Below, in pieces: positions 744 to 64,000 of a DNA stretch of 64,000 nucleotides; within the stretch, counting starts at the first letter, position 1; the number at the start of each line of letters is the position of its first letter. The translations under genes and the position numbers were made by a program. The DNA lies in the NCBI GenBank assembly GCA_012271015.1, contig JAAXHD010000123.1:32138-96137 (forward strand). The letters run 5' to 3'. A model generated the notes under the pieces. The model made no database searches, was not told the DNA's origin, and saw only the letters and a list, made by a program, of their open reading frames with translations. The stretch comes from Candidatus Poribacteria bacterium (GTDB lineage Bacteria; Poribacteria; WGA-4E; WGA-3G).

Positions 744-929
744 AATTATTTCTATGGGCGAAAGCGGATCAAAAAACCCTTGCTCCTCAAAGAGAGGTGG
801 AAACCGTTATGAGTCGTGCTTTGAACCAATTCATCATGTTTTTCTATGATCTCCATGCCCATGGAAAATTGTCGCGCGCGGAATTGCTGCGGGTTAAAGC
901 ACGTCCGGTAAGACCTCCCATCAAGCGGG

Positions 930-2622
930 GTTGAAATAAGAAGATTCTCGATTACGAGATTGAAACCATAGTCCTTTGCAGGTGCCGCCAACCCCCCAAC
1001 TCAGTTGAAATAAGAAGATTCTCGATTACGAGATTGAAACTCCGTGCGTGTTACTTCCGATGTCTGACCCGCGGCATTGTTGAAATAAGAAGATTCTCGA
1101 TTACGAGATTGAAACTGGGTCTGTGAACGTGGGGCCTCGGTCACCCTCGCGTTGAAATAAGAAGATTCTCGATTACGAGATTGAAACCTGCAGTAATCCT
1201 GCCATCCAGTCGAGGTGTCTTGGTTGAAATAAGAAGATTCTCGATTACGAGATTGAAACTGGTAATGGTAAATTAGGTTTAGTCGCAAGGTCTGGTGGGT
1301 TGAAATAAGAAGATTCTCGATTACGAGATTGAAACTTATAGGTATGACGCATCCTCTGGTGGTTGGGACTTTGGTTGAAATAAGAAGATTCTCGATTACG
1401 AGATTGAAACTTCGGTCATAAGGGTGTATCCAGATGGGATGCCCGCTATGAGAGTTGAAATAAGAAGATTCTCGATTACGAGATTGAAACTAAGTTATAC
1501 TATCCACACATTAACTTTTCTCTTTGGGTTGAAATAAGAAGATTCTCGATTACGAGATTGAAACTGTTCCTGGTGCCCGGCACGCAGGTCAGTCGCGACG
1601 GGTGGGGTTGAAATAAGAAGATTCTCGATTACGAGATTGAAACCTTGTGTGAGTCCGCCGCCACCGCCGCCACCGCCCGGTTGAAATAAGAAGATTCTCG
1701 ATTACGAGATTGAAACCTGCTACCATTGTAACGCCTTCTACGGTTGCCGAGAGTTGAAATAAGAAGATTCTCGATTACGAGATTGAAACTTTTTCAGCGA
1801 AATTCGCAGCAGCCGCCTCTTTAGTATTAGTTGAAATAAGAAGATTCTCGATTACGAGATTGAAACATACATTGAAGTGTAGAACCATCCTCAAACTCAA
1901 AGAGTTGAAATAAGAAGATTCTCGATTACGAGATTGAAACATACGTCAATGTGATGTTATCGCCCGCAGTCACCAAGTTGAAATAAGAAGATTCTCGATT
2001 ACGAGATTGAAACTTCTGGAGGCTCTGTTTCTGGAGGCTCTGCAAGCACGTTGAAATAAGAAGATTCTCGATTACGAGATTGAAACGGGGGTGACGGTGT
2101 AGACACAGTTGACTCTGGTAACGGTTGAAATAAGAAGATTCTCGATTACGAGATTGAAACTCCAGAAATGGTGTTATTGAATGGACACCTCGCGGGAATG
2201 TTGAAATAAGAAGATTCTCGATTACGAGATTGAAACCGATCAGGGTTGTTATCCGTATTGCAGACTAATCCTTTATAGATATGTTGAAATAAGAAGATTC
2301 TCGATTACGAGATTGAAACCTAAAATTAATGAGGGGTGGGGGTTGAAGATTCTCCGTGCCGTTGAAATAAGAAGATTCTCGATTACGAGATTGAAACGAG
2401 AGACAACCTTCCCAACCCGTTTTCGGCAATGCTGTTGAAATAAGAAGATTCTCGATTACGAGATTAAAACGTGCGACCCGAAGATCGCACCTACCTCTCC
2501 ATTTCTAAGTTGAAATAAGAAGATTCTCGATTACGAGATTGAAACATTCTATTTATCAACGTCCTGGTGGTAGATGTGAATGTCCGTTGAAATAAGAAGA
2601 TTCTCGATTACGAGATTGAAGT
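930..2622 (+). CRISPR. CRISPR array with 23 repeats of 37 bp (GTTGAAATAAGAAGATTCTCGATTACGAGATTGAAAC) and 22 spacers of 35-41 bp
   Basis: Direct enumeration of repeats at 930, 1004, 1079, 1151, 1223, 1299, 1374, 1454, 1528, 1607, 1680, 1753, 1840, 1904, 1977, 2050, 2124, 2210, 2283, 2361, 2434, 2509 and 2586. The repeat ends in ATTGAAAC, a type I-B / type III-like 8-nt handle. There is an internal variant at 2434 (..GAGATTAAAAC) and a degenerate terminal repeat at 2586 (..GATTGAAG). The leader (744..929) is on the cas2 side and the degenerate repeat is distal, consistent with transcription on the + strand. Confidence 0.95.
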
Positions 2623-2859
2623 TAACACAATATCATCAAAAAGCAGGTAATTCTAAAATCTACCATAGTTGCGTTCGGAGATGTACAACCATAGGGGTCA
2701 ATTTAGAATTTTCACGGCAGATAGGAGAAACTCTACAAATACCGCCCCTATGGGGCTTAGGTCTAGTGGGTGCCGCTTTTCTACAGAGATATCGTCCCTA
2801 CAGGACTGAAGAAGGGTTTTGGGTAGGCACGGTTTGGATCTAAGACTGGGGCGGTTAGG

Positions 2860-3111: not shown

Positions 3112-3266
3112 CGGAGATGCACAACCTAACAGGTTATGCTACAAAGATAATAACTTGCGTTAAAACAGCAACGAAAACGTAGTCCGTAACGCAGTAGAGG
3201 ACGGCTCCAACGCGAAAATCTTGAAGTTTCAAACCACGTTACTTCTCCGCAAGGAATAATTAAAAA

Positions 3267-4148: not shown

Positions 4149-4592
4149 TTTCTAATTTTGCTTGCGCGCAGTCAAGGCTATTCGGTAAGAATCTCTTCTT
4201 GTTGGTGCCGCACGCGCCGTTGTTGCGTGCTACGATCTTTGGCTTTTAGAGGAAATATCTTTCTAATTTTGCTTGCGCGCAGTCAAGGCTATTCGGCAAG
4301 AATCTCTTCTTGTTGGTGCCGCACGCGCCGTTGTTGTGTGCTACGATCTTTGGCTTTTAGAGGAAATATCTTTCTAATTTTGCTTGCGCGCAGTCAAGGC
4401 TATTCGGTAAGAATCTCTTCTTGTTGGTGCCGCACGCGCCGTTGTTGCGTGCTACGATCTTTGGCTTTTAGAGGAAATATCTTTCTAATTTTGCTTGCGC
4501 GCAGTCAAGGCTATTCGGCAAGAATCTCTTCTTGTTGGTGCCGCACGCGCCGTTGTTGCGTGCTACGATCTTTGGCTTTTGGAGGAAATATT
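4149..4592. repeat. Four tandem copies of a 111-bp unit in the 5' leader of the downstream oxidoreductase gene
   Basis: Units start at 4149, 4261, 4372 and 4483 (tttctaattttgcttgcgcgcagtcaaggctattcggtaagaatctcttcttgttggtgccgcacgcgccgttgttgcgtgctacgatctttggcttttagaggaaatatc). Each contains the hairpin GCACGC-N9-GCGTGC and ends in an SD-like GAGGAAATAT. Only the last copy is followed by ATG (4593). Confidence 0.9.
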
Positions 4593-5675
4593 ATGTCAAA
4601 CAGTGACAGAGTACGCATCGGTGTTGTCGGTGTCGGGAGTATCTCCGTGCGCGGTATCCTGCCACACCTCACGCAAGACGATGTCCAAGATAGATTACAG
4701 GTAACGGCTGTCTGTGACCCTGTTCCCGGTAGAGCACAAGCGGCCTCTGAAAAATTTAACGTTCCGTATGCGTACGAAACTTATGAAGCCCTCTTAGCAG
4801 ACGGACATGTAGATGCAGTCAGCATCGCATCGCCTATCGGATTGCATTACGAACAGGGAAAACTCGCCATTGAACACGGTCTCCACGCACATTTCAACAA
4901 GACGATGACAACGACTGTCAATGAAGCGGACGCTCTGATCGAATCGGCGGCGCGTAAAGGTGTAAAATTAGTGGCTTCCCCTGGAGAGATGCTCCGTCCG
5001 ATCCATCAAGAAATTCGCAGTCTTATTGCTGACGGTGCTATCGGAACGTTGACATGGGCAGCTGCTGGTTCCGCCTTTGGAAGATACCACGAAAACGAAT
5101 CCGTTAGACATGGTGACGATCCCCTCTCCAATATCAATCCTGCATGGTATTTCCGCAAACCGGGTGGTGGACCTCTCTATGATATGACTGTCTACGGCTT
5201 GCATACACTGACGGGTATCCTCGGACCTGCGAAACGTGTAACGGCGTTCTCCGGTGTTCGCCTCAAGGAACGCGAATTTCGAGGCGAGATGCTTCCGTGC
5301 GACATGGATGATAACACCTTCATTCTCCTTGACTTCGGCGAAGCATTTTACGGCTTTGTCTACGGTGCTGCTGCCGGTTCTGTCGTCAGAGGTAGGCTGG
5401 CAATTCACGGCACCAATGGCACGATTGAAGGCAACTTGCTGAATGGTAAACCCATTGATGCCCCAGACGGGGAGCTCCCACACGTTGTGGGACCGCATCG
5501 TAGCATCCAAGAATCGCACGTTTATGAGGACATTATGCAGTTGATGGATTGGATTCGCGAGGGTAAACCGACGATTGTCACAGCGGAGCATGCCCGGCAT
5601 GTCATAGAGATCTTCGATGCGGGGTACCGATCCGCGCAAACGGGACAGGCACAAGAGTTACGCACCACATTTTGA
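4593..5675 (+). CDS. Gfo/Idh/MocA family oxidoreductase
   Basis: MSNSDRVRIGVVGVGSISVRG.. is an N-terminal Rossmann fold typical of Gfo/Idh/MocA. GGAGG lies 8 nt upstream of ATG 4593. The upstream part of the 4158 ORF is a translation of the tandem repeat and was rejected. Confidence 0.75.
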   Translation: MSNSDRVRIGVVGVGSISVRGILPHLTQDDVQDRLQVTAVCDPVPGRAQAASEKFNVPYAYETYEALLADGHVDAVSIASPIGLHYEQGKLAIEHGLHAHFNKTMTTTVNEADALIESAARKGVKLVASPGEMLRPIHQEIRSLIADGAIGTLTWAAAGSAFGRYHENESVRHGDDPLSNINPAWYFRKPGGGPLYDMTVYGLHTLTGILGPAKRVTAFSGVRLKEREFRGEMLPCDMDDNTFILLDFGEAFYGFVYGAAAGSVVRGRLAIHGTNGTIEGNLLNGKPIDAPDGELPHVVGPHRSIQESHVYEDIMQLMDWIREGKPTIVTAEHARHVIEIFDAGYRSAQTGQAQELRTTF

Positions 5676-14481: not shown

Positions 14482-14715
14482 GATAATTCCTCCTTCTTGT
14501 AGGAGAATCCCGGCTCCTTCTAACCGCTGACAACCTCTTTGTAGGAGCGACTTTCAGTCGCGACCTTCATTTGTCGCTAAATCGCCCCACAAAAACTAAA
14601 CATCCGTCTTGACTTTTCACTCGATACATGGTAAACTTAAAGTAAGTTGTATTGATGGGAAAACTCTATCCTCAAGCCACTGCTACCCTAAATGAAATGA
14701 AGGTTACCATCCCCT

Positions 14716-35030: not shown

Positions 35031-35849
35031 TTAAAAGGGATTCGGTACGGTAGTGAAATTCCGGTACCGGTCTTCGCCGCGCAGTAGAATCGGTTTCCAA
35101 GGACGCTTCAGCGAATTTTCCTCTGCCTGCTTTACCGATGGATCTATGTAGCGAATCGTCAGACCACATCTCCGACGTGTAGAATGATTCGGTAGGCTAC
35201 CGTGGATCATCTGTCCGTGGTGGATGGACATTTCACCGGCTTTCAGCACCAAATCTACGGCGGTTTCTGCTTCTGCTTCGGTGACGGGTACCTCTTGATT
35301 GATGCTCAGCAGGTTGCCTGCCTGGTCGGATGTCCCGTGTTCCTTGATGCCACGCTGATGGCTTCCCGGGATTACCTGCATACAGCCGTTCCCTGTATCG
35401 CTGTCGTCTATGGCATACCAAGCAGTAATCGCATCCGGTGGTTCAAGTCCCCAATACGTCACGTCTTGATGCCATGCCACGAACTTGTCGCGGGGACCGT
35501 ACTTGCAGAAGAAATGCGTAGCTAACAGCATCACATCGGGACCGATAAGTGCCTCGATGACATCTACAATTTTCGGATGCGTCGCGAGTTCCCAGATAAA
35601 TTGATAATCGAAATGCCAATCGACAAGACCAATTTCACATTTCTCTGCACCGACTTCCGCTTCCAATGCATCATAGGCTTGCCGATGGCGCGTTGCTTCA
35701 ACTTCACCGGAAACATGGATACCGGTCAAGAATCCGTCTTTTCGGTAATTTTCAGCAAGTTTTTTGGTTATACCTTGCGGTTCGGTAAAGGGGGTTTGTG
35801 CACTCACGGTTACCTCCGTATATCCGGAAGCTTGCATTGGCGGAACCAT
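35031..35849 (-). CDS. Phytanoyl-CoA dioxygenase (PhyH) family protein. The true start is probably just downstream of the in-frame conserved element at 35762-35790.
   Basis: PhyH-like core (..DGFLTGIHVSG.., HxD..H facial-triad context). The N-terminal 30 residues include the translated element TEPQGITKK. Confidence 0.6.
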   Translation of the reverse strand: MVPPMQASGYTEVTVSAQTPFTEPQGITKKLAENYRKDGFLTGIHVSGEVEATRHRQAYDALEAEVGAEKCEIGLVDWHFDYQFIWELATHPKIVDVIEALIGPDVMLLATHFFCKYGPRDKFVAWHQDVTYWGLEPPDAITAWYAIDDSDTGNGCMQVIPGSHQRGIKEHGTSDQAGNLLSINQEVPVTEAEAETAVDLVLKAGEMSIHHGQMIHGSLPNHSTRRRCGLTIRYIDPSVKQAEENSLKRPWKPILLRGEDRYRNFTTVPNPF

Positions 35850-36724: not shown

Positions 36725-36862
36725 CGGTTATCAGAAACGATCAGAAGAATGGTTTTGGCTATAAAAAGATTTTCTCGCTGACCCCTGATACCTGACTGCT
36801 GACGAACATCCTCTTCTGTAGGAGCGATCTCCTGATCGCGACTCTTAACTGACAACTGCCAA

Positions 36863-37848: not shown

Positions 37849-40800
37849 CTACAATACCTCACGTAAAAAGCGCGCAGTGTGGGATTCCTGCACCGAGGCG
37901 ACTTCCTCTGGTGTCCCCATGGCAACGACTTCTCCGCCGCCTTTGCTTCCTTCAGGTCCCAAGTCGATGATCCAGTCGGCAGACTTGATAACGTCGATGT
38001 TATGTTCGACAGCGATAATCGTGTTGCCCGCATCAACGAGTCGGTTCAGTACCTTGAGGAGTTTCTGGATGTCGTCAAAGTGGAGCCCTGTCGTCGGCTC
38101 ATCCATGATATAGAGCGTTGAACCGGTTTGGCGACGTGCCAATTCTTTCGCAAGTTTGACGCGCTGCGCCTCACCACCGGAGAGGGTCGTCGCGGATTGT
38201 CCCAATTCTATATAACCGAGTCCAACATCTGTTAACATCTGAAGCGTCCGACAGATGCGTGGACTTTCACTGAAGAATGCGAGTGCTTCGTCCACTGTCA
38301 TCGCTAAGACTTCAGCAATATTTTTGTCCTTGTAACGGATTTCAAGGGTTTCCATACTATAACCGGTGCTATTACACGTCTCACACGGCATCCACACATC
38401 AGGAAGGAAATGCATCTCAATGCGATTGAAACGGTGCCCCTCACAAACATGACACTGCCCCTGTGCGAGGTTGAAACTGAATGTGCCCATACTATACCCA
38501 CGCATCTTCGCATCATGTTGCTCAGCGAAGAGTTCACGGATTTTCGTAAACAGGTCGGTATAAGTTGCTGGATTGGAACGCGGCGTCTCTCCGATCGCCT
38601 TCTGGTCTACATTGATGAGACGTTTGATATGGCTAACACCGCGGATGGTTTCATATTCCGGTAGACCATAGTCGTTATATATCGGTTCTCGGTGACCATC
38701 GCTGAAATAATGGGTATAACGACGGTCCTTGGGATCACCAGTTTTGATAGAACTACGACTTTCAAGAGCGGGTTTTAGTGTGCCTTCAACGAGCGAACTC
38801 TTTCCGCACCCTGAGACACCAGTGACACAGGTGAGTGTCCCAAGTGGAATCTCAACATCAATGTCTTTGAGATTATTCGTTTTCGCCCCGAATATTGTTA
38901 ATTGTTTTCCTATGCCTTCGCGCCGAGTGCTGGGAACAAGAATCTCCACTTCATTAGAAAGATAGGCTTGCGTCAAAGATTTTTTAATTTTACCTTGCGG
39001 GGACCTTTCGGGGGTTTGTGCTTTGACGTGCTTTTCTGTAGAGTCGCCCTCCACTTCGTTACGGGCTATCGGTTGCGTGCTAATCACTGATTGCTGATCG
39101 CTGACCGCTGATCGCTGAAATGTATCCGGCGTACCGATAGCGACAATCTCACCACCTCCCTTGCCTGCTTGGGGACCGAAGTCGATTACATGATCGGAGG
39201 CTAATATTGTATCGCGGTCGTGTTCAACGACGAGGACGCTGTTCCCAATATCGCGGAGTTCCTTGAGTGCCGCAATGAGGCGTTCTTGGTCGCGCGGGTG
39301 TAAGCCGATACTCGGTTCGTCAAGAATATAGGTTACACCGGTGAGACCGCTACCGAGTTGGCTCGCGAGCTGGATTCTGCGCATTTCGCCACCGGAAAGC
39401 GTTGGTGCTCCGCGGTCTAACGCCAGATAACCGAGCCCAATATCTTCCAAGAACTGGAGCCGCGTCCGGATTTGGTGTAGGACTTCGGCTTCAAATTCAG
39501 GTGAAGTATGAATGTGAAGTGACGGATGCGTCGCTCTTGAGGTTGACACGCCTGTTGCGATCAGGAAATCGTTCCTATCAGTCTCCGCGTCAGCCGAAAC
39601 GACCGCCGCTTCGATTCGATTTAACTGTGTGTCGAAGAACTCAATAATTTCGGTAATTGACAATGCCATCAATTCAGAGACAGTTACATTCTCAAATCTG
39701 ACACAACTTGGAAAGGGTTTCAGTCGTGTGCCGTGGCATTGTTTGCACGCCTCGTATGGTGGGTGCATGTTTCTTCCGCGTCCATCACAGAAATCGCAAG
39801 CCCCTATTTTGTTGTTAAAGGAGAAGTGGCGTGGTGTCAATTGCCCAAAATTGTTGCCGCAAGAACGACACATCGCGTGTTCACTAAAGAAATGTCGTTC
39901 CGTTGTTTGTCCGCGTTCTATTTTTTCTATGAGTACGAACCCACCACTTTGTAGGAGTGCTAACTCCACGGCTTCCGTAAAACGACTTTTTTCCTCGTCT
40001 ACAAGTTCGACGCGGTCGATGACGATAAAGATTTCATGGTGAATGCCCCTACTCAACTTCGGCGTTTCATCAAGTCGGTGAATCTCACCGTCAATTTGAA
40101 CCCGTACAAATCCTGCTCTTTGCAATCGACGAAATACATCAGCGTAATCCTCGTTCCCTTTCAAACCGTACGCTGACTCACTTGCATTTACATCAACAAT
40201 TTTACCCCTTGACACGCCTTCTTTACCTTCCGGAAGCAGCAAGAAGTTCGTGAGCGGTGCGAGGACATCCACCCGCTGTTCGCGGAGGATTTCAAAAACC
40301 TGCTCCGTTATTTCTTCCGCTGTCTGTGGCTGTACCTCCTTTTGGCAATCTGGACAGTAGGGCTTACCCCATCTGGCATAAAGTGTACGGAGTCCATCGT
40401 GTATCTCCGTAATCGTCGCGACAGTGGATCTTGGGTTTTGCCCAGCATTGGCGTGCGAAATAGCAATCGCGGGCGAGAGTCCCTCAATTTTTGAGACTTT
40501 GGGCTTTTCCATCTGCCCTATAAACTGACGCGCATAAGTGCTGAGTGTTTCAATATAACGACGCTGTCCTTCGGCATAAACAGTATCCAGTGCAAGCGAT
40601 GTCTTACCCGAACCGCTCACCCCAGTCAACGCGGTCATCTTTCGGTGCGGAATATCGATGTCAATATCTTTCAGATTATTTTCTGTAGCTCCTCGCACAA
40701 CAATGTTTTTAATTTTTCTTTGCGGTTCGTTCAAGTGAATTGGTCGTTCCACGCTCCGTTCCGTACATCCGCACCCCACTTCGTTACAGGCTACGATTTC

Positions 40801-43758
40801 GTCGGATTCTGCAATTATACCTTGTGGTTCATTCGGATCGGAAGAAGAGCAGATATCGAAATCCCCGCGAAGTGCCCGACCGGTGTAAGATTCCGGCATG
40901 TCCGCGATCTGTTCAGGTGTCCCCACGGCAACGATAGTACCGCCATCAATACCGCCCTCAGGTCCCAAATCAATGAGATAATCTGCGGAGTTAACGACTT
41001 CCAGATTATGTTCAACGACGACGACCGTATTGCCATCGTCTACGAGTCTATGAAGTATCGTCAACAGTTTATTTACATCGTCAAAGTGCAAACCGGTTGT
41101 GGGTTCGTCGAGGATATAGAGCGTTTTACCGGTGCCGCGTTTGGAAAGTTCCCGCGAAAGTTTGATACGTTGTGCTTCGCCACCTGAGAGCGTGGGGGCG
41201 GGTTGTCCGAGTTTAATGTAATCCAAACCGACATCATGGAGCAGTTTCAACCCTCTTGCGATCCTCGGAATATCGGCGAAATGTGCAAGTGCAGTCTCAA
41301 TATCCATTTCAAGGACTTCAGAGATGTTCTTCTCCTTGTATTTAATGGCGAGGGTTTCGCTATTGAAGCGTTTTCCCTCACACACCTCACACTCCACCCA
41401 GACATCAGAGAGGAGTCCCATATCGACTTTTTTTGCACCGTTCCCGCTACAGGCTTCACATCTACCACCAGAGACGTTGAAACTAAACCGTCCGGGTTTA
41501 TAGCCTCGCAATTTGGCATCGGGCAACCCCGCATAGAGTGCGCGAATATTGTCGAAGACTTTTGTGTATGTCGCTGCGTTGGAACGCGGTGTGCGTCCGA
41601 TAGGTGCCATGTCGATGTTGATAATTTTGTCTATGACATCGGAGACCGGAACGCTTTTCCCTTCAATGATGCCCCGAATATCGTCATAATCCCCCGGCAC
41701 AGTCTTCGCTTTCATGAGGTCGCGGGCGAGTGCTTTGTAGAGAATATCGTGAATTAAGGAACTCTTTCCAGAACCACTCACACCCGTTACACAGCAGAGC
41801 GTACCCATAGGTACTTTAGGACTGATACCTTGGAGATTGTTCTGGCGTGCGTTGCAGATTTGTATCCACCTATCTCCTGTTGGTCGGCGGGATTCGGGTT
41901 GAACGATCACCTGATCGCCTCGGAGATATTGGGCAGTGAGTGTATTGCTCTCCTTCATGAACTGTGCGGGTGTACCGATATCCGTTATATTCCCGCCCTT
42001 AATGCCAGCACCGGGACCGAAATCGACGATAAGATCAGCCACCAACATCGTTGCTTCATCGTGCTCAACGACGATAACGGTGTTGCCTTGATTCCGCAAG
42101 TTTAAGAGGGTCATGAGCAAACCGGCGTGGTCGCGTGGATGTAAACCGATGCTGGGTTCATCAAGAACATAGGTGACATCTCGTAACCCTGCTCCTACCT
42201 GACTCGCAAGGCGAATGCGCTGTGCTTCACCACCGGAAAGGGTCGGTGCGGGACGTGCAAGCGTCAGATACCCCAACCCTACGTCCATAAGGAATCCGAG
42301 TCGTCCTCGAATTTCTTTTAAGAGTTCTGACGCGATGAGCGTCTCGCGCTCTGGAAGTTCCAACTCGCCGAAGAATTGGGTGGCATCCTGAATAGACATC
42401 TCAAGAATGTCCGTTATAGAGGTATCGCCTATCGTCACGGCTTTTACCCATGGGGTAAGTCGGGTTCCTTCACATGTCCTGCAGGGCATTTTGACAAAAT
42501 AGTCCGGGAAGGTGTCTTCATCGGTTTCCTCGTCATCCTCAAAGCGATACTTCTGCTCTTCAGTTGGAATGATGCCGTGAAAACGGGCGCGATATTGCCG
42601 TCGTTGCTTTCGCCCTCTGTGTCTACCTGTACTGGGGGTGGTAATCGTAAGAATATCGTCCCCGGTGCCGTAGAGAATGGCATGTTGCTGTTCCGGTGTG
42701 AGGTCTTTCCAAGGTGTCTCAATATCGAATCCGAGGTGTTTTGCGAGTGCCTCAGCGATTACCTTTTCCTTGAGAGTATTTCGCGTATCAAGAGGTCCCC
42801 ATAGACTTATGGCACCTTGCATGATGGAAAGCGTCTCATCTGGCACGATCAACCTTGGCAAGATTCCCATTTCCACGCCTAAACCGCGACAATTCTCACA
42901 CATTCCATCAGGGTTGTTGAAAGAGAAGTGGCGTGGTTCTGGTTTCACGAAACTGATCCGGCAGTGCGCGCAGGTATAATCCTCGCTAAACAGCAGGTCG
43001 TCGTCCTCCGTCGCGAATGGAGATCCTTCGCCTTCAGTGGGAACAACGTGGACAAGGAGGCTTCCATCTCCACGCATGAGGGCAGTAGATACGGCTTGCG
43101 CAACACGAGGTTCAACTCCCTCCTTGATAACAATCCGGTCAATGACAACATCAATGTCGTGACGTTGATTGGGATTCAAGGTGAGACCGGGTCGGAGTTC
43201 GTATATTTCACCATCGATTCGCAACCTCGCGAAACCCGCTTTGCGTAAATCTTCAAGTTCTCTTTGGTGTGCGCCGCGGGAGCCTCTGATAATCGGTGCT
43301 AAAATGATAAGTCTGGTGCGCTCTGGATAGTCGATCAGAGCTTGGACGATATCTGCGGCAGTTTGTGAACCGACCTCACGCCCGCATTCGGGACAGTGGA
43401 ATTGCCCTGCGCGGGCATAGAGGACACGGAGGTAGTCGTAGACTTCTGTTACGGTTGCCACTGTGGAACGCGGGTTATGTCCCGTTGATCCCTGATCAAT
43501 GGCAATAGAAGGAGACAATCCGACAATTTCGTCTACATCTGGCTTGCCGAGTTGCCCTAAAAACTGCCGGGCGTACGCCGATAAAGACTCGATGTATCGG
43601 CGTTGTCCTTCGGCGTAAACGGTATCAATCGCCATCGAAGATTTGCCGGAACCGCTCACACCGGTGAAGACGATGAGTTTGTCTTTTGGAAGTTGGATAT
43701 CAATGTTTCTGAGATTGTGCTCGCGTGCACCTTGTACAAGAATCGACTCTTCTGTCAT
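37849..43758 (-). CDS. uvrA: Uninterrupted 1969-codon ORF containing two complete UvrA (excinuclease ABC subunit A) units in tandem. UvrA unit 1 is about 43758..40750. UvrA unit 2 is about 40699..37849 and is itself interrupted in frame at 38975-39120.
   Basis: Four ABC ATPase modules (Walker [33 protein letters not shown]; signature LSGGEAQRI x3 and LSGGEMRRI). UvrA zinc-finger cysteines. C-terminus ..[12 protein letters not shown]. The junctions carry the conserved repeat element (see findings). Confidence 0.85.
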
Positions 43759-43853
43759 TTTTTAATTATTCCTTGCGGTTCGGTCAGAGGGATTAAGACA
43801 TTCTTGTTTCTTTGCGTATATCTGCCTGCGCCGGTGTTGCAGGCTACAATTTC
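43759..43853 (-). promoter_or_regulatory. Full copy of the recurrent conserved element (motif B hairpin plus motif A ..CTGACCGAACCGCAAGGAATAATTAAAAA) abutting the uvrA ATG
   Basis: See findings. The same roughly 95-nt bipartite element is at 47304..47396, 40706..40840 and 38980..39072. Motif A alone is at 63902..63940, 3246..3266 and 35762..35790. Confidence 0.6.
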
Positions 43854-43986
43854 GGTTTAGTGTTTTTGCTTGGGTGTTTCCCCAGGAATCGGAGTTCCTT
43901 CCTACCGAGAAACCTGTACGTCATGGAATAGAGTGCAGTCCAGGTAACGGAAGAATTAAAAACCTATTTTTTGTTACAGGACGCAG

Positions 43987-45683: not shown

Positions 45684-46118
45684 GGTGCCACCTCGTCACT
45701 ATTTTTTTGGACTACGCGACAAAATTATACCACATCTCACAGTTAGATAACAATTTGTTTTTCAGTGAAAGTAGGAATGGATTAGAATCCGACTCTATAG
45801 CAACGCTGTCCTCTGTGATGTTTGAACGAATTATATGCCCCAATTTTCCCCATAGGTGAGTTAGGATTCTACAACCATAGCCGTCAATTTAGGGTTTTTC
45901 ACGGTATTTGGTAGCACCGTCTTTACAAATGCCGCCCCGCTGGAGCTTGGGTCTTTGAGTTAACATATGCTACACAAATGCCGCCCCGATGGGGCTAAAT
46001 CGGATAAATCGCGAGCCGGAGCTCGCTCCTACAGGGTGTAGCACCGTCTTTACAAATGCCGCCCCGCTGGGGCTTTAGATACACCCAACATTCTAATAGG
46101 GACTCTATCTTAATTGAC

Positions 46119-47399
46119 TTATAAGGCAGTACCCAATTCTTTCGCGATAGTGTAGACATCTTTGTCCCCGCGACCTGAAAGGCAGACAGCAATAATTTGA
46201 TTTTTACCAAGTTTAGGTGCAAGCTCACGCAGATAGGCAATGGCATGTGCGGATTCTAATGCGGGGATGATCCCCTCCGTCTCTGATAGCAATCGGAATC
46301 CCTCTACCGCCTCTGCATCGGTAATCGGCACGTATTCCGCTCTACCGGTTTCACGATAATAACTGTGTTCCGGTCCGACACCCGGATAATCTAATCCTGC
46401 AGAGATCGAGTGTGCGGGGGTTATCTGACCGTCATCCTCTTGCAACAGATAGCACTTCGCACCGTGAAAGACACCAACACTACCCGCAGTGAGAGGTGCG
46501 GCGTGTCGTCCGCTACGAATGCTGTCACCTGCGGCTTCTACACCGATAAGCCGAACAGATTGATCGGCATAGAAGGGATAGAACATACCGAGTGAATTAC
46601 TCCCACCCCCGACACAGGCGACGACACAATCAGGTAAAGTCCCTGCCGCCTCTAAAATCTGTGCTCTCGCTTCGGCACCGATGACGGATTGGAAGTCTCG
46701 AACGATCATTGGGTAAGGGTGTGCGCCGACAACCGAGCCGAGAAGCAGATAGGTGGTTCGGACATTCGTGACCCAATCTCGGAAGCAGGCGTTGATCGCA
46801 TCCTTGAGCGTCCGCGACCCAGAGTTAACCGGTACGACCTTTGTGCCCATCAATTGCATGCGGAAAACGTTGAGTGCCTGCCGTTCTATGTCTTCCTCAC
46901 CCATATACACTTCGCATTCCATACCGAACTTTGCGGCGACAGTGGCTGTTGCGACGCCGTGTTGTCCAGCACCGGTCTCGGCAATGATGCGTTTTTTGCC
47001 CATCCACCGCGCGAGGAGGATTTGACCGATTGCGCTGTTAATTTTGTGAGCACCTGTATGGTTGAGGTCTTCCCGTTTGAGATATATTTTTGCGCCACCG
47101 AGTGTTTCTGTTAAATGCTCGGCGTAATAGAGTGGGTTTGGTCGCCCGACATACTCACGGAGGTAGTACTGAAACTCTTGCTGGAATTCGGGATTGTCCT
47201 TGAGTTTCATGTACGCTTCTTCGAGTTCTAAAAGGGCGGGCATGAGTGTTTCGGGGACGTATCTGCCTCCGAATTGTCCGAAATGTCCTGTCGCATCAGG
47301 AAGTTTTTTAATTATACCTTGCGGTTCGTTTAGATGGACCTGGGATTGCATATTCATCTCCGTATATCTGCCTGCGCCGTTGTTGCAGGCGACAATCAT
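46119..47399 (-). CDS. trpB: Tryptophan synthase beta chain. The N-terminus is uncertain because the conserved element is in frame at codons about 20-32.
   Basis: ..[19 protein letters not shown].., the PLP lysine region ..[12 protein letters not shown].., and GGGSN. The first 32 codons ([32 protein letters not shown]) are a translation of the repeat element. Alternative ATG codons lie at 47357 and 47351. Confidence 0.85.
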
Positions 47400-47426
47400 G
47401 GAATGTAGAGGGAGCAGTAGCCATGG

Positions 47427-54033: not shown

Positions 54034-57000
54034 TTATTGTGAAAACATTAATCGTTTGAAGAGCGGATCTAAAGATTCTGCTTCTGGAACAATACTATCT
54101 GTGTTAACATAGACCTTGTCCGCTCCATCTGTGAGTTTGTGCCCTTCAACAAAGAAGAAATCTCGTTCCCAATCTTCTGGGCCCCAGCCTTCAGTATCAC
54201 GCCAGATAATGATGGTAGTTTTTTGTCCGACTATACCGCGGTAGATGAGATAACGTCTATCATCATCATCATACAAGCATTGGCGGGTTTTGACTGTAAT
54301 TCCAAGAAGATAGTTAAAAGTTTCGGGCAAGTCCACAGTCTGTGTCTGCGTCTGTAGACTTTCAGCGATGTTAAGTCGATAGTTAAACGGGTTTTGGAGT
54401 TTAGCAACGTTCAAAAATGTTGGACTTTCACGAGTTTCGCTACCGAGTAGGTAACTGAGTAGCGGCTCCTCAAAGAGCGAGTTTTCGCGTTCGGTGAATT
54501 CAACGTTATTGAGCGCATCTTCATAGGATTCAATACGTTGGTATTTGATGGTGTGGGAGAGACGGGAGTCGGGGTTAGAAACCCCTCCTACAAAGACAGG
54601 TTTCGCATCTTTCCACTTTTCGGCATAGACGGCTTTTTTGATACGTGGTTTGAGGACGGTGTCGAAATGATCTCCCATTTCAATGAGGATGTATTTACGA
54701 TTGCCATTATCTTTACGGTTGAGGTTGATAGTTGCGTGGGCAGTGGTCCCAGAACCCCCGAAATAATCAAGAACGATGTCCCTGTCGGTACAATTCATGT
54801 TAATTAGATATTTTAATAGTGAAGTAGGTTTAGGATAGTCGAATTTATCAGTGCCGAGGGTTTCTTCTAGTTCTGTGTTTGCGTCTTCATTGGTTCCTAC
54901 TTGACATTCTTTTTGTGTAATTAGATTTGAGGGGACTTTAACTCGTTTTTGCTGATTTCTTTCGTAACGGATAGAAAATTTATCACTCTTTATGTGAAAG
55001 AGCGTTCCAGCTTCAATTTCGTTTTGAACAGTTTCCTGCACCCATTTAAATCTGCCTTCCATAATCAGGTTATTTAGAAATTGGCCGTTCCTCACCTCTA
55101 TTTCTTCAACGAGTTTAATTTTGCCATACTTTTGGGCTTTATAAATACCATCTTTAAGGTTAACCCTACGAAATGCGTCTTTTGGAAACTCAAGCTGGCG
55201 AATAGTATTTGCTTCATTGAGTAACGGCATATCTCCGCCTTCTGTCTGTCCACCGAAGAGATTCAGCTTTTTCGATTTCCTATAGCAGATGAGCGGTTCC
55301 ATTTTTCTTCTAACTGTTTTTGATAGACTTGGAGGAGTAGCGGTCCGCATCCAAAAGAATTGTGCAGTAAAGTTCGACTCTCCAAAAATCTTATTCATTA
55401 ACATCCGTAAGTGATGCACTTCATTATCATCAATTGATATGAAGATCGCCCCTTCTTGGGATAGCAATTCGTGTGAAATTGCAATTCGATCTGCTATGAA
55501 GGAAAACCAACTTGAATGTTGATAAGAGTTTTTGTAAATAAAATCAGTCCCACCCGTATTGTAAGGTGGGTCAATGCAGATGGTTTTTAGGGATTCACGA
55601 TATTTCTTTGTCAGCAGATTTAGTCCTTGGAAGTTTTCTCCGTGGATTAACAAGCCATCTGTTTCGTTATCCAGATCGTCAAAATGTGACAGGAGGCGAT
55701 CTATGAAATCAGAACCAAAATGACAGGTGTCTAAGACGAGGTTTGGGTTTTCTTTGAGAAAGTCAATGGAGGGCGGTTCGGTATAGGTAGAATTAACGAG
55801 ATCAGCATCTATTTCGTGAATAGCAAAGAGACGTTTCCACTCTTCAAGCTGCGCAGTGTTTTGGACAATTTCAGAATAGAATTCTTCTGGAACTTGGTCA
55901 AGTGTGAGGCAGTAGTCGGTGGAGAGGACGAACTTCTTTTTAAGCCAGAGTGTCTTTTGGAATTCTTCAATGTGGGAGAGAAAATCAATGATTTGGGTGG
56001 CGATGTGGTGAACGAGTTTCGCGGTTTCAAGCCAATTATTAATATTTGTTAAACAAGGATTTACCCCCCCCCCCACTTTACTGATGTTAAGTATAAACTC
56101 AGAAAGTAGAAGAACTTCGTTTTTGATATAGACATCAAGTTCGCGGGCGAGGAACTGATTCAGGCCCTTATGAATGAAGAAGTCTGCAGTGTTGCGGCGT
56201 GTGTAGGTGCGGAGGTGTTTTTTGAGAGTAGTTTCACCTTCCGTTTGGTGTTCTAAAGCAGATAGGGCATTGTAATGACCTGTTAGGCATTTCATGATTT
56301 CAGGTTCAACAGCTTCAAGGATTTTATCCTGCTGTTTTTGTCCGCTGTAGCGTTTCTTTTCTGCATCGGTGAGGGGTCGGTATTCAAAAGGGATGCGGAT
56401 TTCATCAGTTTCCGATTTATAGGTTGTCTCGGCAGATAGAGGCACGAAAAAACGTTTCGTGCCTTTGACGTTATCCTTTTCAATATCTACATCACGAAGG
56501 TCAAAGGTAACGGTAATACCTTGGGATTTGAATCTGTAGGTAGAGAAATGCTCGCCGCTTTTGACATAATATTGGTCTCGGTTTGCCCAGTGGAGGTAGA
56601 CTTCCTCGCCGTTGTATGGAACAGCGTAGCGTTCAGTCTGCGAGTAGCGTCGGCGCGGGATGAAGTCGCCATTATCGTAGTAGCGGGAAAAGAAGGTATA
56701 GAGATGGTTAAAGACGGCATCTTCTCGCTGGTTTCGGGTTTGCGGGGAGCCGATTTGTTCTTTTGCCTCCAGGTATTTCTGAACAAGAGGTGTTGCTTTG
56801 TATGTTTCATTGATTAGGTTTCCGTCGGCATTTAGAACTCCATCGCCAAAGTTTTGGCGAATCTGTTGTGCAAGGTTCTCCATTTCTTGGTGCTCAGATT
56901 CAATATCAGTGTTAGCGTCAAGTGCCGTGTTAACGATAGTAGGAAGTTCTTCGTCGAGGAAGGCTTGGATTTGATCGCGTCGATAGTTGATGATACGGTA

Positions 57001-57105: not shown

Positions 57106-57702
57106 TCAATTTTGATTGCGTGCGTTTATTTCCATCAGTTTTTCGCGAGCCAATATTTCAAAGACCGGCATCACTCTTTCGACGAGTTCGTCGTATCGTC
57201 CAGACAAGCGATCATGTGCTGTCTGTAGAGCTTTTAGTTCGCTTGTAACCGCATCTAACGCGGCGCGGAGGGTTGCATTTCCTTCCTGAAGCGTGTTATG
57301 CTGATCCAGCAGGATACTCTGGGATTCCTGAAGCGCGTTATGCTGATCCAGCAAGGAATTATATCTCCGATCAGCCGTGCTTTGGAAAGTTATAAGTTCC
57401 TGCTGTAGGGTGCTGTGCTGTCCTTGGAGGCTTTCATGTTCTTGCTGTAGGGTGCTGTGCTGTCCTTGGAGGCTTTCATGTTCTCGCTGCAGCGTGATGT
57501 GTTCCTGTCGTAGGCTTTCATGTTCTCGCTGCAGCGTGATGTGTTCCTGCTGCAGGGCGTTGCATCGCTTATCTAATTCCTCAGAGAGTGCTGTGTATCG
57601 ATCGACCTGGTTTTTCAACCACCATAAGCCGATAATACTGATACTCAGCACACCCATGTCTATTAAGCTGATAGTTGCCCAACTGAATTCTAAGAGTCCC
57701 AT
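57106..57702 (-). CDS. Membrane-anchored coiled-coil protein with tandem 17/18-residue repeats
   Basis: N-terminal TM segment, then HITLQREHESLRQE x2 and HSTLQQEHESLQGQ x2, encoded by nucleotide tandem repeats at about 57400-57560. Confidence 0.45.
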   Translation of the reverse strand: MGLLEFSWATISLIDMGVLSISIIGLWWLKNQVDRYTALSEELDKRCNALQQEHITLQREHESLRQEHITLQREHESLQGQHSTLQQEHESLQGQHSTLQQELITFQSTADRRYNSLLDQHNALQESQSILLDQHNTLQEGNATLRAALDAVTSELKALQTAHDRLSGRYDELVERVMPVFEILAREKLMEINARNQN

Positions 57703-63901: not shown

Positions 63902-64000
63902 CTTTTAATTATTCCTTGCGGTTCGGTCAGGCGGATTAGATATTCAACACGTTTCTCCGTAGACCTAAAGAAACACCCCGCTGAATGCCACACGCGCATT

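Follow-up and report, generated by a model that had tools for sequence, protein, structure and literature searches.

A dispersed, structured repeat in the linkers of a tandem UvrA protein of Candidatus Poribacteria whose fusion predates the repeat

A single open reading frame (ORF) of 1969 codons lies in a 64-kb stretch of DNA (contig JAAXHD010000123.1; the whole stretch is called the window below) from the genome of a sponge-symbiotic Candidatus Poribacteria bacterium. It encodes two UvrA units in tandem, joined by a linker that contains copies of a short dispersed repeat, here called the element. The translation carries four each of the Walker A motif GVSG[SC]GK[ST]S, the signature TLSGGE and the (L/M)DEP Walker B motif, and Pfam searches found UvrA_inter twice, UvrA_DNA-bind once (residues 301–412) and ABC_tran. 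Taken by itself, unit 1 surpasses the cutoff of each of the two NCBIfam UvrA equivalogs (NF001503, 1317 bits against a cutoff of 1147; TIGR00630, 1274 bits against 730), and unit 2 scores above the TIGR00630 cutoff (1046 bits) but below that of NF001503 (1083 bits). The two units are approximately 43% identical, and the top match of the tandem protein in PDB is UvrA 2r6f, over residues 4–964. ORF, Pfam, NCBIfam and motif evidence thus agree with an earlier note, made from the sequence alone, that described a 1969-codon ORF with two UvrA units and four ABC modules. The fusion protein of approximately 220 kDa that the note offered as one possible product is also the product expected from the in-frame ORF. 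Coordinates of all features are collected in Table 1.

In place of the DNA-binding insertion domain, unit 2 has a short CxxC..CxxC stretch. It also carries a further insert of approximately 35 amino acids (aa) relative to unit 1 (window 39400–39560, about residues 1400–1445), the C-terminal part of which is conserved in all of the 45 aligned homologues. This insert therefore looks like a fixed feature of unit 2, unlike the linkers described below.

Table 1. Features of the window and, where a locus is named, of related loci
Feature	Position	Strand	Basis or remark
Tandem UvrA-UvrA ORF, four ABC modules, single 1969-codon frame	37849..43758	-	ORF list, UvrA domains and equivalogs, fused homologues
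UvrA unit 1, residues 1-969, class-I-like, with UvrB-interaction and insertion domains	40852..43758	-	passes NF001503 and TIGR00630 alone
UvrA unit 2, residues 1019-1969 plus stop, UvrB-interaction domain kept, insertion domain absent	37849..40704	-	domain and equivalog searches
Inter-unit linker, 49 codons, residues 970-1018, derived element allele of a hypervariable tether	40705..40851	-	linker comparisons
Complete element copy (~100-nt dispersed repeat) with GTAG hairpin, TACGGA box and CCGAACCGCAA(A/G)G..AATTAAAAA tail	40706..40806	-	nhmmer
Partial 3' tail (motif A, family D9) of the preceding element unit	40813..40835	-	profile positions 76-98
In-frame GTG (V1003), 13 nt after TACGGA, candidate weak internal start	40750..40752	-	sequence comparison
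ATT GTT GTG (I1019-V1021), candidate starts of the earlier note	40696..40704	-	not conserved as start in relatives
Second element copy, in frame, within the linker that separates the ATPase halves of unit 2	38981..39079	-	Shine-Dalgarno and start signals decayed
Heptanucleotide tract (GCTGATC) x 5.7 inside unit 2, adjoining the second element copy	39079..39118		related tract in allele D of L004
Element copy at its usual place, ending ..CAAGGAATAATTAAAAA directly at the ATG of the tandem uvrA (5' leader, ribosome-binding site)	43759..43857	-	
Element copy at trpB	47403..47305	-	
Element copy at phyH	35849..35761	-	
Element copy	63992..63903	-	
Element copy	3168..3266	+	
Genes behind the element with no canonical start	L004 3826-3922 (era); L038 ~7667; L067 ~5016; L045 ~6182		
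Other palindromic repeat copies	36816-36841 / 46009-46034; 14536-14564 / 54568-54596; 2721, 19796, 45911, 45960, 46038		

The stretch that is not UvrA follows ..GDFDI. A profile built from the window's own element copies and run with nhmmer located a full-length copy in the inter-unit linker (E = 9e-23, profile positions 3–103) and a 3' fragment of a second unit (E = 0.12). The earlier note had described this junction as two copies of a motif A plus a motif B, in frame, which the profile bears out; its span of 40697–40840 located the linker but ended slightly short on the 5' side of it. The copy carries the GTAG hairpin segment GTAGCCTGTAAC, although its hairpin is partly disrupted. In all, the window junction comprises 1.3 element units, and 2.3 units stand at the same place in the related locus L001. 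Since the insert starts with the tail of one unit followed by a full unit, and since L001 has 2.3 units, we suggest that it was copied from a tandem array of elements. Such arrays lie upstream of trpB in two further related loci, L002 and L004. Searching proteins with the peptide that the element encodes yielded a single 69-aa ORF and did not recover even the UvrA linkers, and is thus uninformative.

We compared the whole protein with its homologues, of which 120 clusters were found among the matches listed (69–100% identity), and compared six related loci, L001–L006, at the DNA level. With the help of a neighbour-joining tree of conserved columns, the homologues were divided into outgroups (73–76% identity), a mid clade (81–88%) and a crown clade (at least 89%). 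All 120 listed clusters are fused, with lengths of 1891–1999 aa except for one truncated entry of 1593 aa (P0099). Nearly all of them cover the full query, several are on megabase long-read contigs, and those that are named belong to Candidatus Poribacteria. Only 19 of the 120 have the element in the inter-unit linker. The fusion is therefore older than the element in this Candidatus Poribacteria lineage.

The earlier note had proposed that the element occupies exactly the former stop, intergenic and start region and thereby created the fusion. Comparison of the orthologous loci refutes this proposal, since related genomes show a natural fusion that lacks the element. It is true that gene 5' ends are exactly where the element is normally found, that it meets unit 2 just as it meets other N-terminal cores, and that in deep time the tandem must derive from two genes. 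A recent joining of two adjacent uvrA genes by an element that replaced stop, spacer and start is nevertheless scarcely credible, because the relatives are all fused, including outgroups at 69–88% identity that lack the element family at these loci (L005 and L006, where a search with the element profile found no copies), because the native linker is homologous across clades and coding, and because tandem UvrAs occur in other phyla. An in-frame repeat at a domain boundary thus need not be the cause of a fusion; here the comparative data turned that inference around.

Tandem UvrA architecture is not new and occurs in many other bacteria. Approximately 140 of the best 150 representatives at 50% identity are longer than 1200 aa, and for many of them a single alignment spans the junction; one example from Planctomycetota has 1962 aa. 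The domain set varies among tandem lineages, with the insertion domain absent from unit 2 in the window protein, present twice in P0134 and P0121 and in unit 2 only in P0124. NCBIfam also holds a UvrA model of 1809 positions, NF001885. Like the double-length proteins of NF001885 and PRK00635, which we take to be chlamydial, the window protein combines two UvrA units and four ABC ATPase modules in one polypeptide annotated as 'UvrA'. Unlike them, it belongs to a different lineage and falls below the NF001885 cutoff (1251.6 bits against 3054), its best stretch matching model positions 6–916 only. A duplicated 'class III' UvrA is reportedly named in an older review. In the literature searched we found no published functional work on tandem UvrA, the described classes being I, IIa and IIb; these proteins appear to be widespread but functionally unstudied. 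The class IIa and IIb paralogues (UvrA2, DrrC, Ecm16; PMC9328131) also depart from the canonical domain set, but class II lacks the UvrB-binding domain (PMC9328131), whereas both units here keep it, unit 2 lacks the insertion domain instead and the units are covalently joined.

Could the fused frame be an artefact of assembly, or the remnant of a decaying gene with a junk linker? The linker consists of repetitive DNA that assemblers can collapse, and frameshifts do occur in the linker on a related contig, L120. Against this, the exact protein of the window is recorded on four contigs (NCBI and ENA), and element linkers were found in 19 independent clusters from different samples, including multi-megabase long-read contigs, which makes an assembly error at the junction very unlikely. 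The order of genes around the fused ORF (2-Hacid_dh, trpB, HEAT, era, uvrA-uvrA, dnaJ, creatininase, phyH, DAO) is shared by the six related loci, and these syntenic loci include contigs of 1.5–6.6 Mb, so the fused ORF is not an assembly artefact. Both units also keep all ATPase motifs and are approximately 90% identical between relatives, with only the linkers varying. We therefore find the idea of an artefact or pseudogene extremely improbable. We looked at a 907-aa protein, P0274, as a possible natural split allele but discarded it: at least four frame breaks are scattered across the gene on its contig, L120, a pattern typical of error-prone assembly, so the split is most likely an assembly error. 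On the same contig, era is called at 238 aa.

Both units show high conservation, but the linker between them differs in length and sequence even where the proteins as a whole are approximately 90% identical. Outgroup linkers are short (23–40 aa) and element-free, and some 60 mid-clade clusters share one conserved, element-free linker of 27 aa, IWRDAKQRLIEPELADAFEQAQEKRTA. A patchwork of four linker alleles, all in frame, is confined to the crown clade, with one exception for the element allele. These are a native-type linker of 28 aa, the element linker of 50–84 aa (the 19 clusters mentioned above, which include the mid-clade exception P0051), a GGAAGG/CCTTCC repeat linker of 33–36 aa and a heptamer-composite linker, allele D, of 41–48 aa, which is the allele in L004. 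The length variants of the element allele (50, 57, 58 and 84 aa) are likewise all in frame. The tether is thus polymorphic. That all alleles and element length variants are multiples of three and free of stops is as expected if repeats survive there only when the tether stays open and in frame.

At the DNA level, one homologous, coding native linker is common to L003 and L005. The conserved flanks, GATAT(C/T)TG.. and ..AAC ATT GTT, are also the same in the window, L001, L002 and L004, but what lies between them is a replacement that differs from locus to locus. In the window, the 1.3 element units stand in place of approximately 75 nt of native linker. Across 1.05 Mb of Poribacteria DNA, the native alleles match orthologous uvrA loci only, but the element, like the heptamer part of allele D, is dispersed. 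In the mid clade, cluster P0051 (86% identical to the window protein) has an element linker of the crown type, and its relatives all have the native 27-aa linker. Together with the identical allele boundaries found in non-sister lineages, P0051 suggests that linker alleles have spread between lineages by homologous recombination. For an essential repair protein, the locus amounts to a natural 'linker-swap experiment' in which four unrelated tethers of 28–84 aa are tolerated between the UvrA units, and these data may be useful for modelling or engineering single-chain UvrA dimers.

A second linker, between the two ATPase halves of unit 2, behaves alike. Here the 41-aa insert that unit 2 has relative to unit 1, just before SLTQAYL, is an element copy with a heptamer tract ahead of it. 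The native linker at this site, of 19–25 aa, is kept in most lineages, and the crown-clade alleles consist of the heptamer tract, the element or both. The element copy is present in L002–L004 and patchy across the crown clade, and its start signals are lost (GTC, ACAGAAAAG). The heptamer tract is possibly prone to slippage, since one unit more or less would put the last ABC module out of frame. Tracts related to the GCTGATC heptamer are scattered over other loci, and in L004 one is a component of linker allele D.

The element itself is a dispersed, structured and lineage-specific repeat. There are eight copies in the window and 5–7 copies per 16 kb in L001–L004. Its exact 23-nt core, GAACCGCAAGGWAWAATTAAAAA, matches at least 113 stretches, of which those with informative titles are all metagenome-assembled genomes of Candidatus Poribacteria (more than 25 genomes), and the element is thus specific to Poribacteria. 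A search of the whole window with Rfam at the gathering threshold found no family. The consensus of 142 copies begins with a hairpin of the form GC-GTAG-CCTGCAAC..GCAGGC with a conserved GTAG, followed by GCAGGCGGATATACGGA..(about 35 nt)..CCTGACCGAACCGCAAGGTAAAATTAAAAA. Pairing within the stem, from 6-26 to 9-23 (in one subfamily as far as 11-21), holds in 94–96% of copies, as opposed to maxima of 84–91% after shuffling. The stem covaries, with pair 9-23 being TA in 72 copies and CG in 54 and with pairs 7-25 and 8-24 switching between CG and TA, and the loop measures 9–13 nt; RNAalifold applied to the raw alignment recovered a 4-bp core only. The element further has a TACGGAG box resembling a Shine–Dalgarno (SD) sequence, and the tail of approximately 65 nt to which its hairpin is joined ends in a mimic of a ribosome-binding site (RBS), CAAGGAATAATTAAAAA. 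The RBSs of native, element-free genes, such as TAAGGAATAAAAA-ATG, are resembled by this tail. A TATAAT-like segment of the tail, GGTATAATT, was considered as part of a sigma-70 promoter; this reading was dropped because the tail fits the native RBS context and in-frame copies are translated.

With respect to genes, 63 of 164 copies terminate at the start codon of an ORF that is 90 codons or longer. In a further class (41 of 164), the ..EPQG(K/I)IK(K/N) frame of the element continues into a long ORF, often abutting the conserved N-terminal core, and such in-frame N-terminal copies were found at TrpB, ProC, CoaBC, DAO, PhyH, an ABC ATPase and others. None of the 164 copies adjoins an ORF in a different frame unless a start is present. 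Few copies lie within long ORFs (9 of 207, in a sample biased toward uvrA loci), and eight of the nine are at the two uvrA sites. The other one, at L079 ~4123, lies in a frame that is open for 175 codons upstream and 173 downstream.

The phyH gene exists in two states. In L003 (12338–12433) and L004 (12846–12884) the element is followed by an ATG and 7 codons, whereas in the window, L001 and L002 it is fused in frame through the loss of the ATG and approximately 7 codons (approximately 21 nt) downstream of the element. The fused state uses the GGAGG-N5-GTG start of the element and gains approximately 22 N-terminal residues. Behind the element, era, a MurQ-like gene, proC and a homocysteine-methyltransferase-like gene have no in-frame ATG, GTG or TTG from the preceding stop to the conserved core, and the only candidate that they share is the ATT of the element (..AAGGnAnA ATT AAA AAn). 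AUU initiation, frameshifting on A runs or homopolymer errors could account for these genes. A Poribacteria-specific repeat that rewrites gene 5' ends may deserve a study of its own.

Two further arrangements of the element family were observed. In L053 (2651–3525), seven tandem copies are spaced at 142 nt, which is not a multiple of three, and are apparently non-coding. In the window, positions 4149–4591 hold four tandem 111-nt units that are 98% identical and whose minus strand is a diverged element variant, with a GTAGCACGCAACAACGGCGCGTGC hairpin showing compensatory stem changes and a tail ending in ..GCAAGCAAAATTAGAAA. These units artificially lengthen the N-terminus of ORF 4158..5675, the real start of which is probably near MSNSDRVRIGVVGVG.

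We think it probable that the tandem UvrA is an ancestral single-chain protein of approximately 220 kDa and that the element settled later in its flexible tether as a passenger peptide. The two units would be joined by a tether with little sequence constraint, for which it would suffice to be open, in frame and of adequate length. The native tether of approximately 27 codons would then have been replaced, in the crown clade, by alternative alleles of short dispersed repeats. The element's normal place is at gene 5' ends, where it may supply the RBS for the adjacent ATG; after small in-frame deletions it may come to supply the start codon and approximately 16 N-terminal codons as well, and in the UvrA tether and the unit-2 linker it would simply be translated as a passenger. 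Acquisition probably occurred by illegitimate recombination or gene conversion from a tandem array, with AAAAC microhomology on the 3' side, after which purifying selection on the downstream UvrA unit would have retained only in-frame, stop-free variants. UvrA acts as a dimer, so the tandem units plausibly form an intramolecular pseudo-dimer.

One alternative grants the element segment a function in the protein or the mRNA, for example as a ribosome-pausing hairpin that aids co-translational folding or as a means of tuning the tether. In favour, the hairpin shows covariation among copies, many lineages have kept element alleles, and alleles do differ in tether length (28–84 aa). However, the element is absent from the ancestral state, four unrelated alleles can stand in for one another at approximately 90–96% identity of the remaining protein, and the hairpin at the window junction is the partly disrupted one noted above. 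In comparison with shuffled controls, RNA folding gave no extra stability for the junction (z = 0.49) or for a canonical element copy (z = −0.21). We consider such a function very improbable.

Several points weigh against the passenger-peptide interpretation. One chain of approximately 220 kDa is the most likely product, but it is predicted here from DNA sequence only. The gene on L120 is broken in the linker, though it is broken elsewhere too. The rarity of copies inside long ORFs means that tolerance may not fully explain the two UvrA sites. With regard to the pseudo-dimer, a 421-aa segment of the junction gave a poor AlphaFold2 model (mean pLDDT, the model's own confidence score, 38.7); the featureless linker in that model is for the same reason not evidence. 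Finally, an in-frame GTG stands in the junction copy at the offset where the trpB and phyH copies have their starts, and the ATT of the junction copy lies one nucleotide from where other copies carry ATG.

These last two points favour a dual output, in which an internal start re-created by the tether element (GTG 40752–40750, ATT 40704–40702 or the element's own ATT 40713–40711) would yield free unit 2 besides the fusion. The earlier note had also raised internal initiation of unit 2, at GTG 40699 or ATT 40705; these codons exist, one position away from where the note placed them (GTG 40698–40696, ATT 40704–40702). At the trpB and phyH copies the only available starts are inside the element, 13 nt after TACGGA, the second junction unit of L001 has GGAG-N6-GTG, and the 63 copies with a start codon have it immediately after ..AATTAAAAA, where the junction has C-ATT. 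In addition, the several genes behind the element without a canonical start hint at non-AUG initiation in the tail. On the other hand, the SD-like boxes at the window junction are weakened (GGAAC for GGAG(G), CAAAGA for CAAGGA), ATT is a poor start codon, and the older copy in unit 2 lacks start signals, as expected if these are unused or selected against. No promoter or terminator site was predicted in a scan of 40400–41100, and thus no sigma-70-like promoter at the junction. The linker types, including those of outgroups, share no conserved start codon or SD; in L003 and L006, GTA encodes the V of I-x-V-R/Q-G-A. An internal start of unit 2 as a shared feature therefore fails, whereas a weak side product is possible in element alleles: given the in-frame GTG and the ATT near the usual ATG position, a minor unit-2-only product is conceivable. 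Dual output as an account of the locus seems to us rather unlikely. A broader version of it is unlikely too. There, the element would be a portable translation-start cassette that overwrote the native 5' ends of many Poribacteria genes, sometimes leaving an AUU start, element alleles of uvrA would make both the fused chain and free unit 2, and allele polymorphism would switch the repair sensor between a fused and a partly split form.

Among known repeats, the element most recalls the repetitive extragenic palindromes (REPs) tagged with GTAG, which have been reported in the Planctomycetes–Verrucomicrobia–Chlamydiae (PVC) superphylum (PMC3733652). Like these it has a GTAG-tagged palindrome, compensatory stem variants, a high copy number and a patchy distribution between strains; GTAG stands at the end of the palindrome, and both the stem (5–13 bp with alternative complementary residues) and the loop (2–20 nt) are in the range of GTAG-REPs. 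Unlike classical REPs, which are mostly downstream of genes, it lies mostly at 5' ends, with its hairpin joined to a tail of approximately 65 nt. The describers of GTAG-REPs (Di Nocera et al. 2013, PMC3733652) noted intragenic units, many of them in genes for replication and repair, an observation that is here extended to a new phylum. In the most distant relative, L006, an OrfB_IS605 / Cas12f-like TnpB gene lies near uvrA (51–1262); it is not a REP-associated tyrosine transposase (RAYT), and it is a hint of IS200/IS605-type machinery in the phylum.

The element also resembles the rickettsial palindromic elements (RPEs), small selfish repeats found in frame in unrelated housekeeping genes, where their peptide occupies positions compatible with function (PMC10969869). 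As with RPEs, the repeat is translated in frame and absent from orthologues, and both uvrA sites show presence/absence polymorphism. RPEs differ in being CGTC-tagged and intragenic in nearly half of cases, as opposed to the 9 of 207 copies here. The Correia element has been shown to drive uvrB in Neisseria (PMC10969869). As with Correia and other 'mobile promoter' repeats, many unrelated genes have the Poribacteria element immediately upstream and receive expression signals from it. Correia elements, however, carry sigma-70 promoters, integration host factor (IHF) sites and terminal inverted repeats, whereas the clear signal of the Poribacteria element is translational (SD mimic, start and leader codons). 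It further differs from MITEs (transposable elements of the miniature inverted-repeat type) in that no terminal inverted repeats or target-site duplications are visible: its ends (GCGTAGCC.. and ..AATTAAAAA) are not inverted repeats, and no duplicated flank was visible at the junction or in the phyH, trpB and DAO comparisons. The locus is a clean case of repeats colonising flexible linkers in a conserved tandem repair protein.

Other repeats in the window include two palindromic families, one of the GTAG type (TGTAGGAGCGA..TCGC) and one forming a GCCCCnnnGGGGC hairpin, and the genome appears to be rich in REP-like repeats. A clustered regularly interspaced short palindromic repeat (CRISPR) array at window 920–2645 consists of 23 repeats of the 37-nt unit GTTGAAATAAGAAGATTCTCGATTACGAGATTGAAAC with spacers of approximately 36–46 nt. 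At 57402–57555 there is a tandem repeat with a 42/21-nt period, 3.4 copies and 91% matches.

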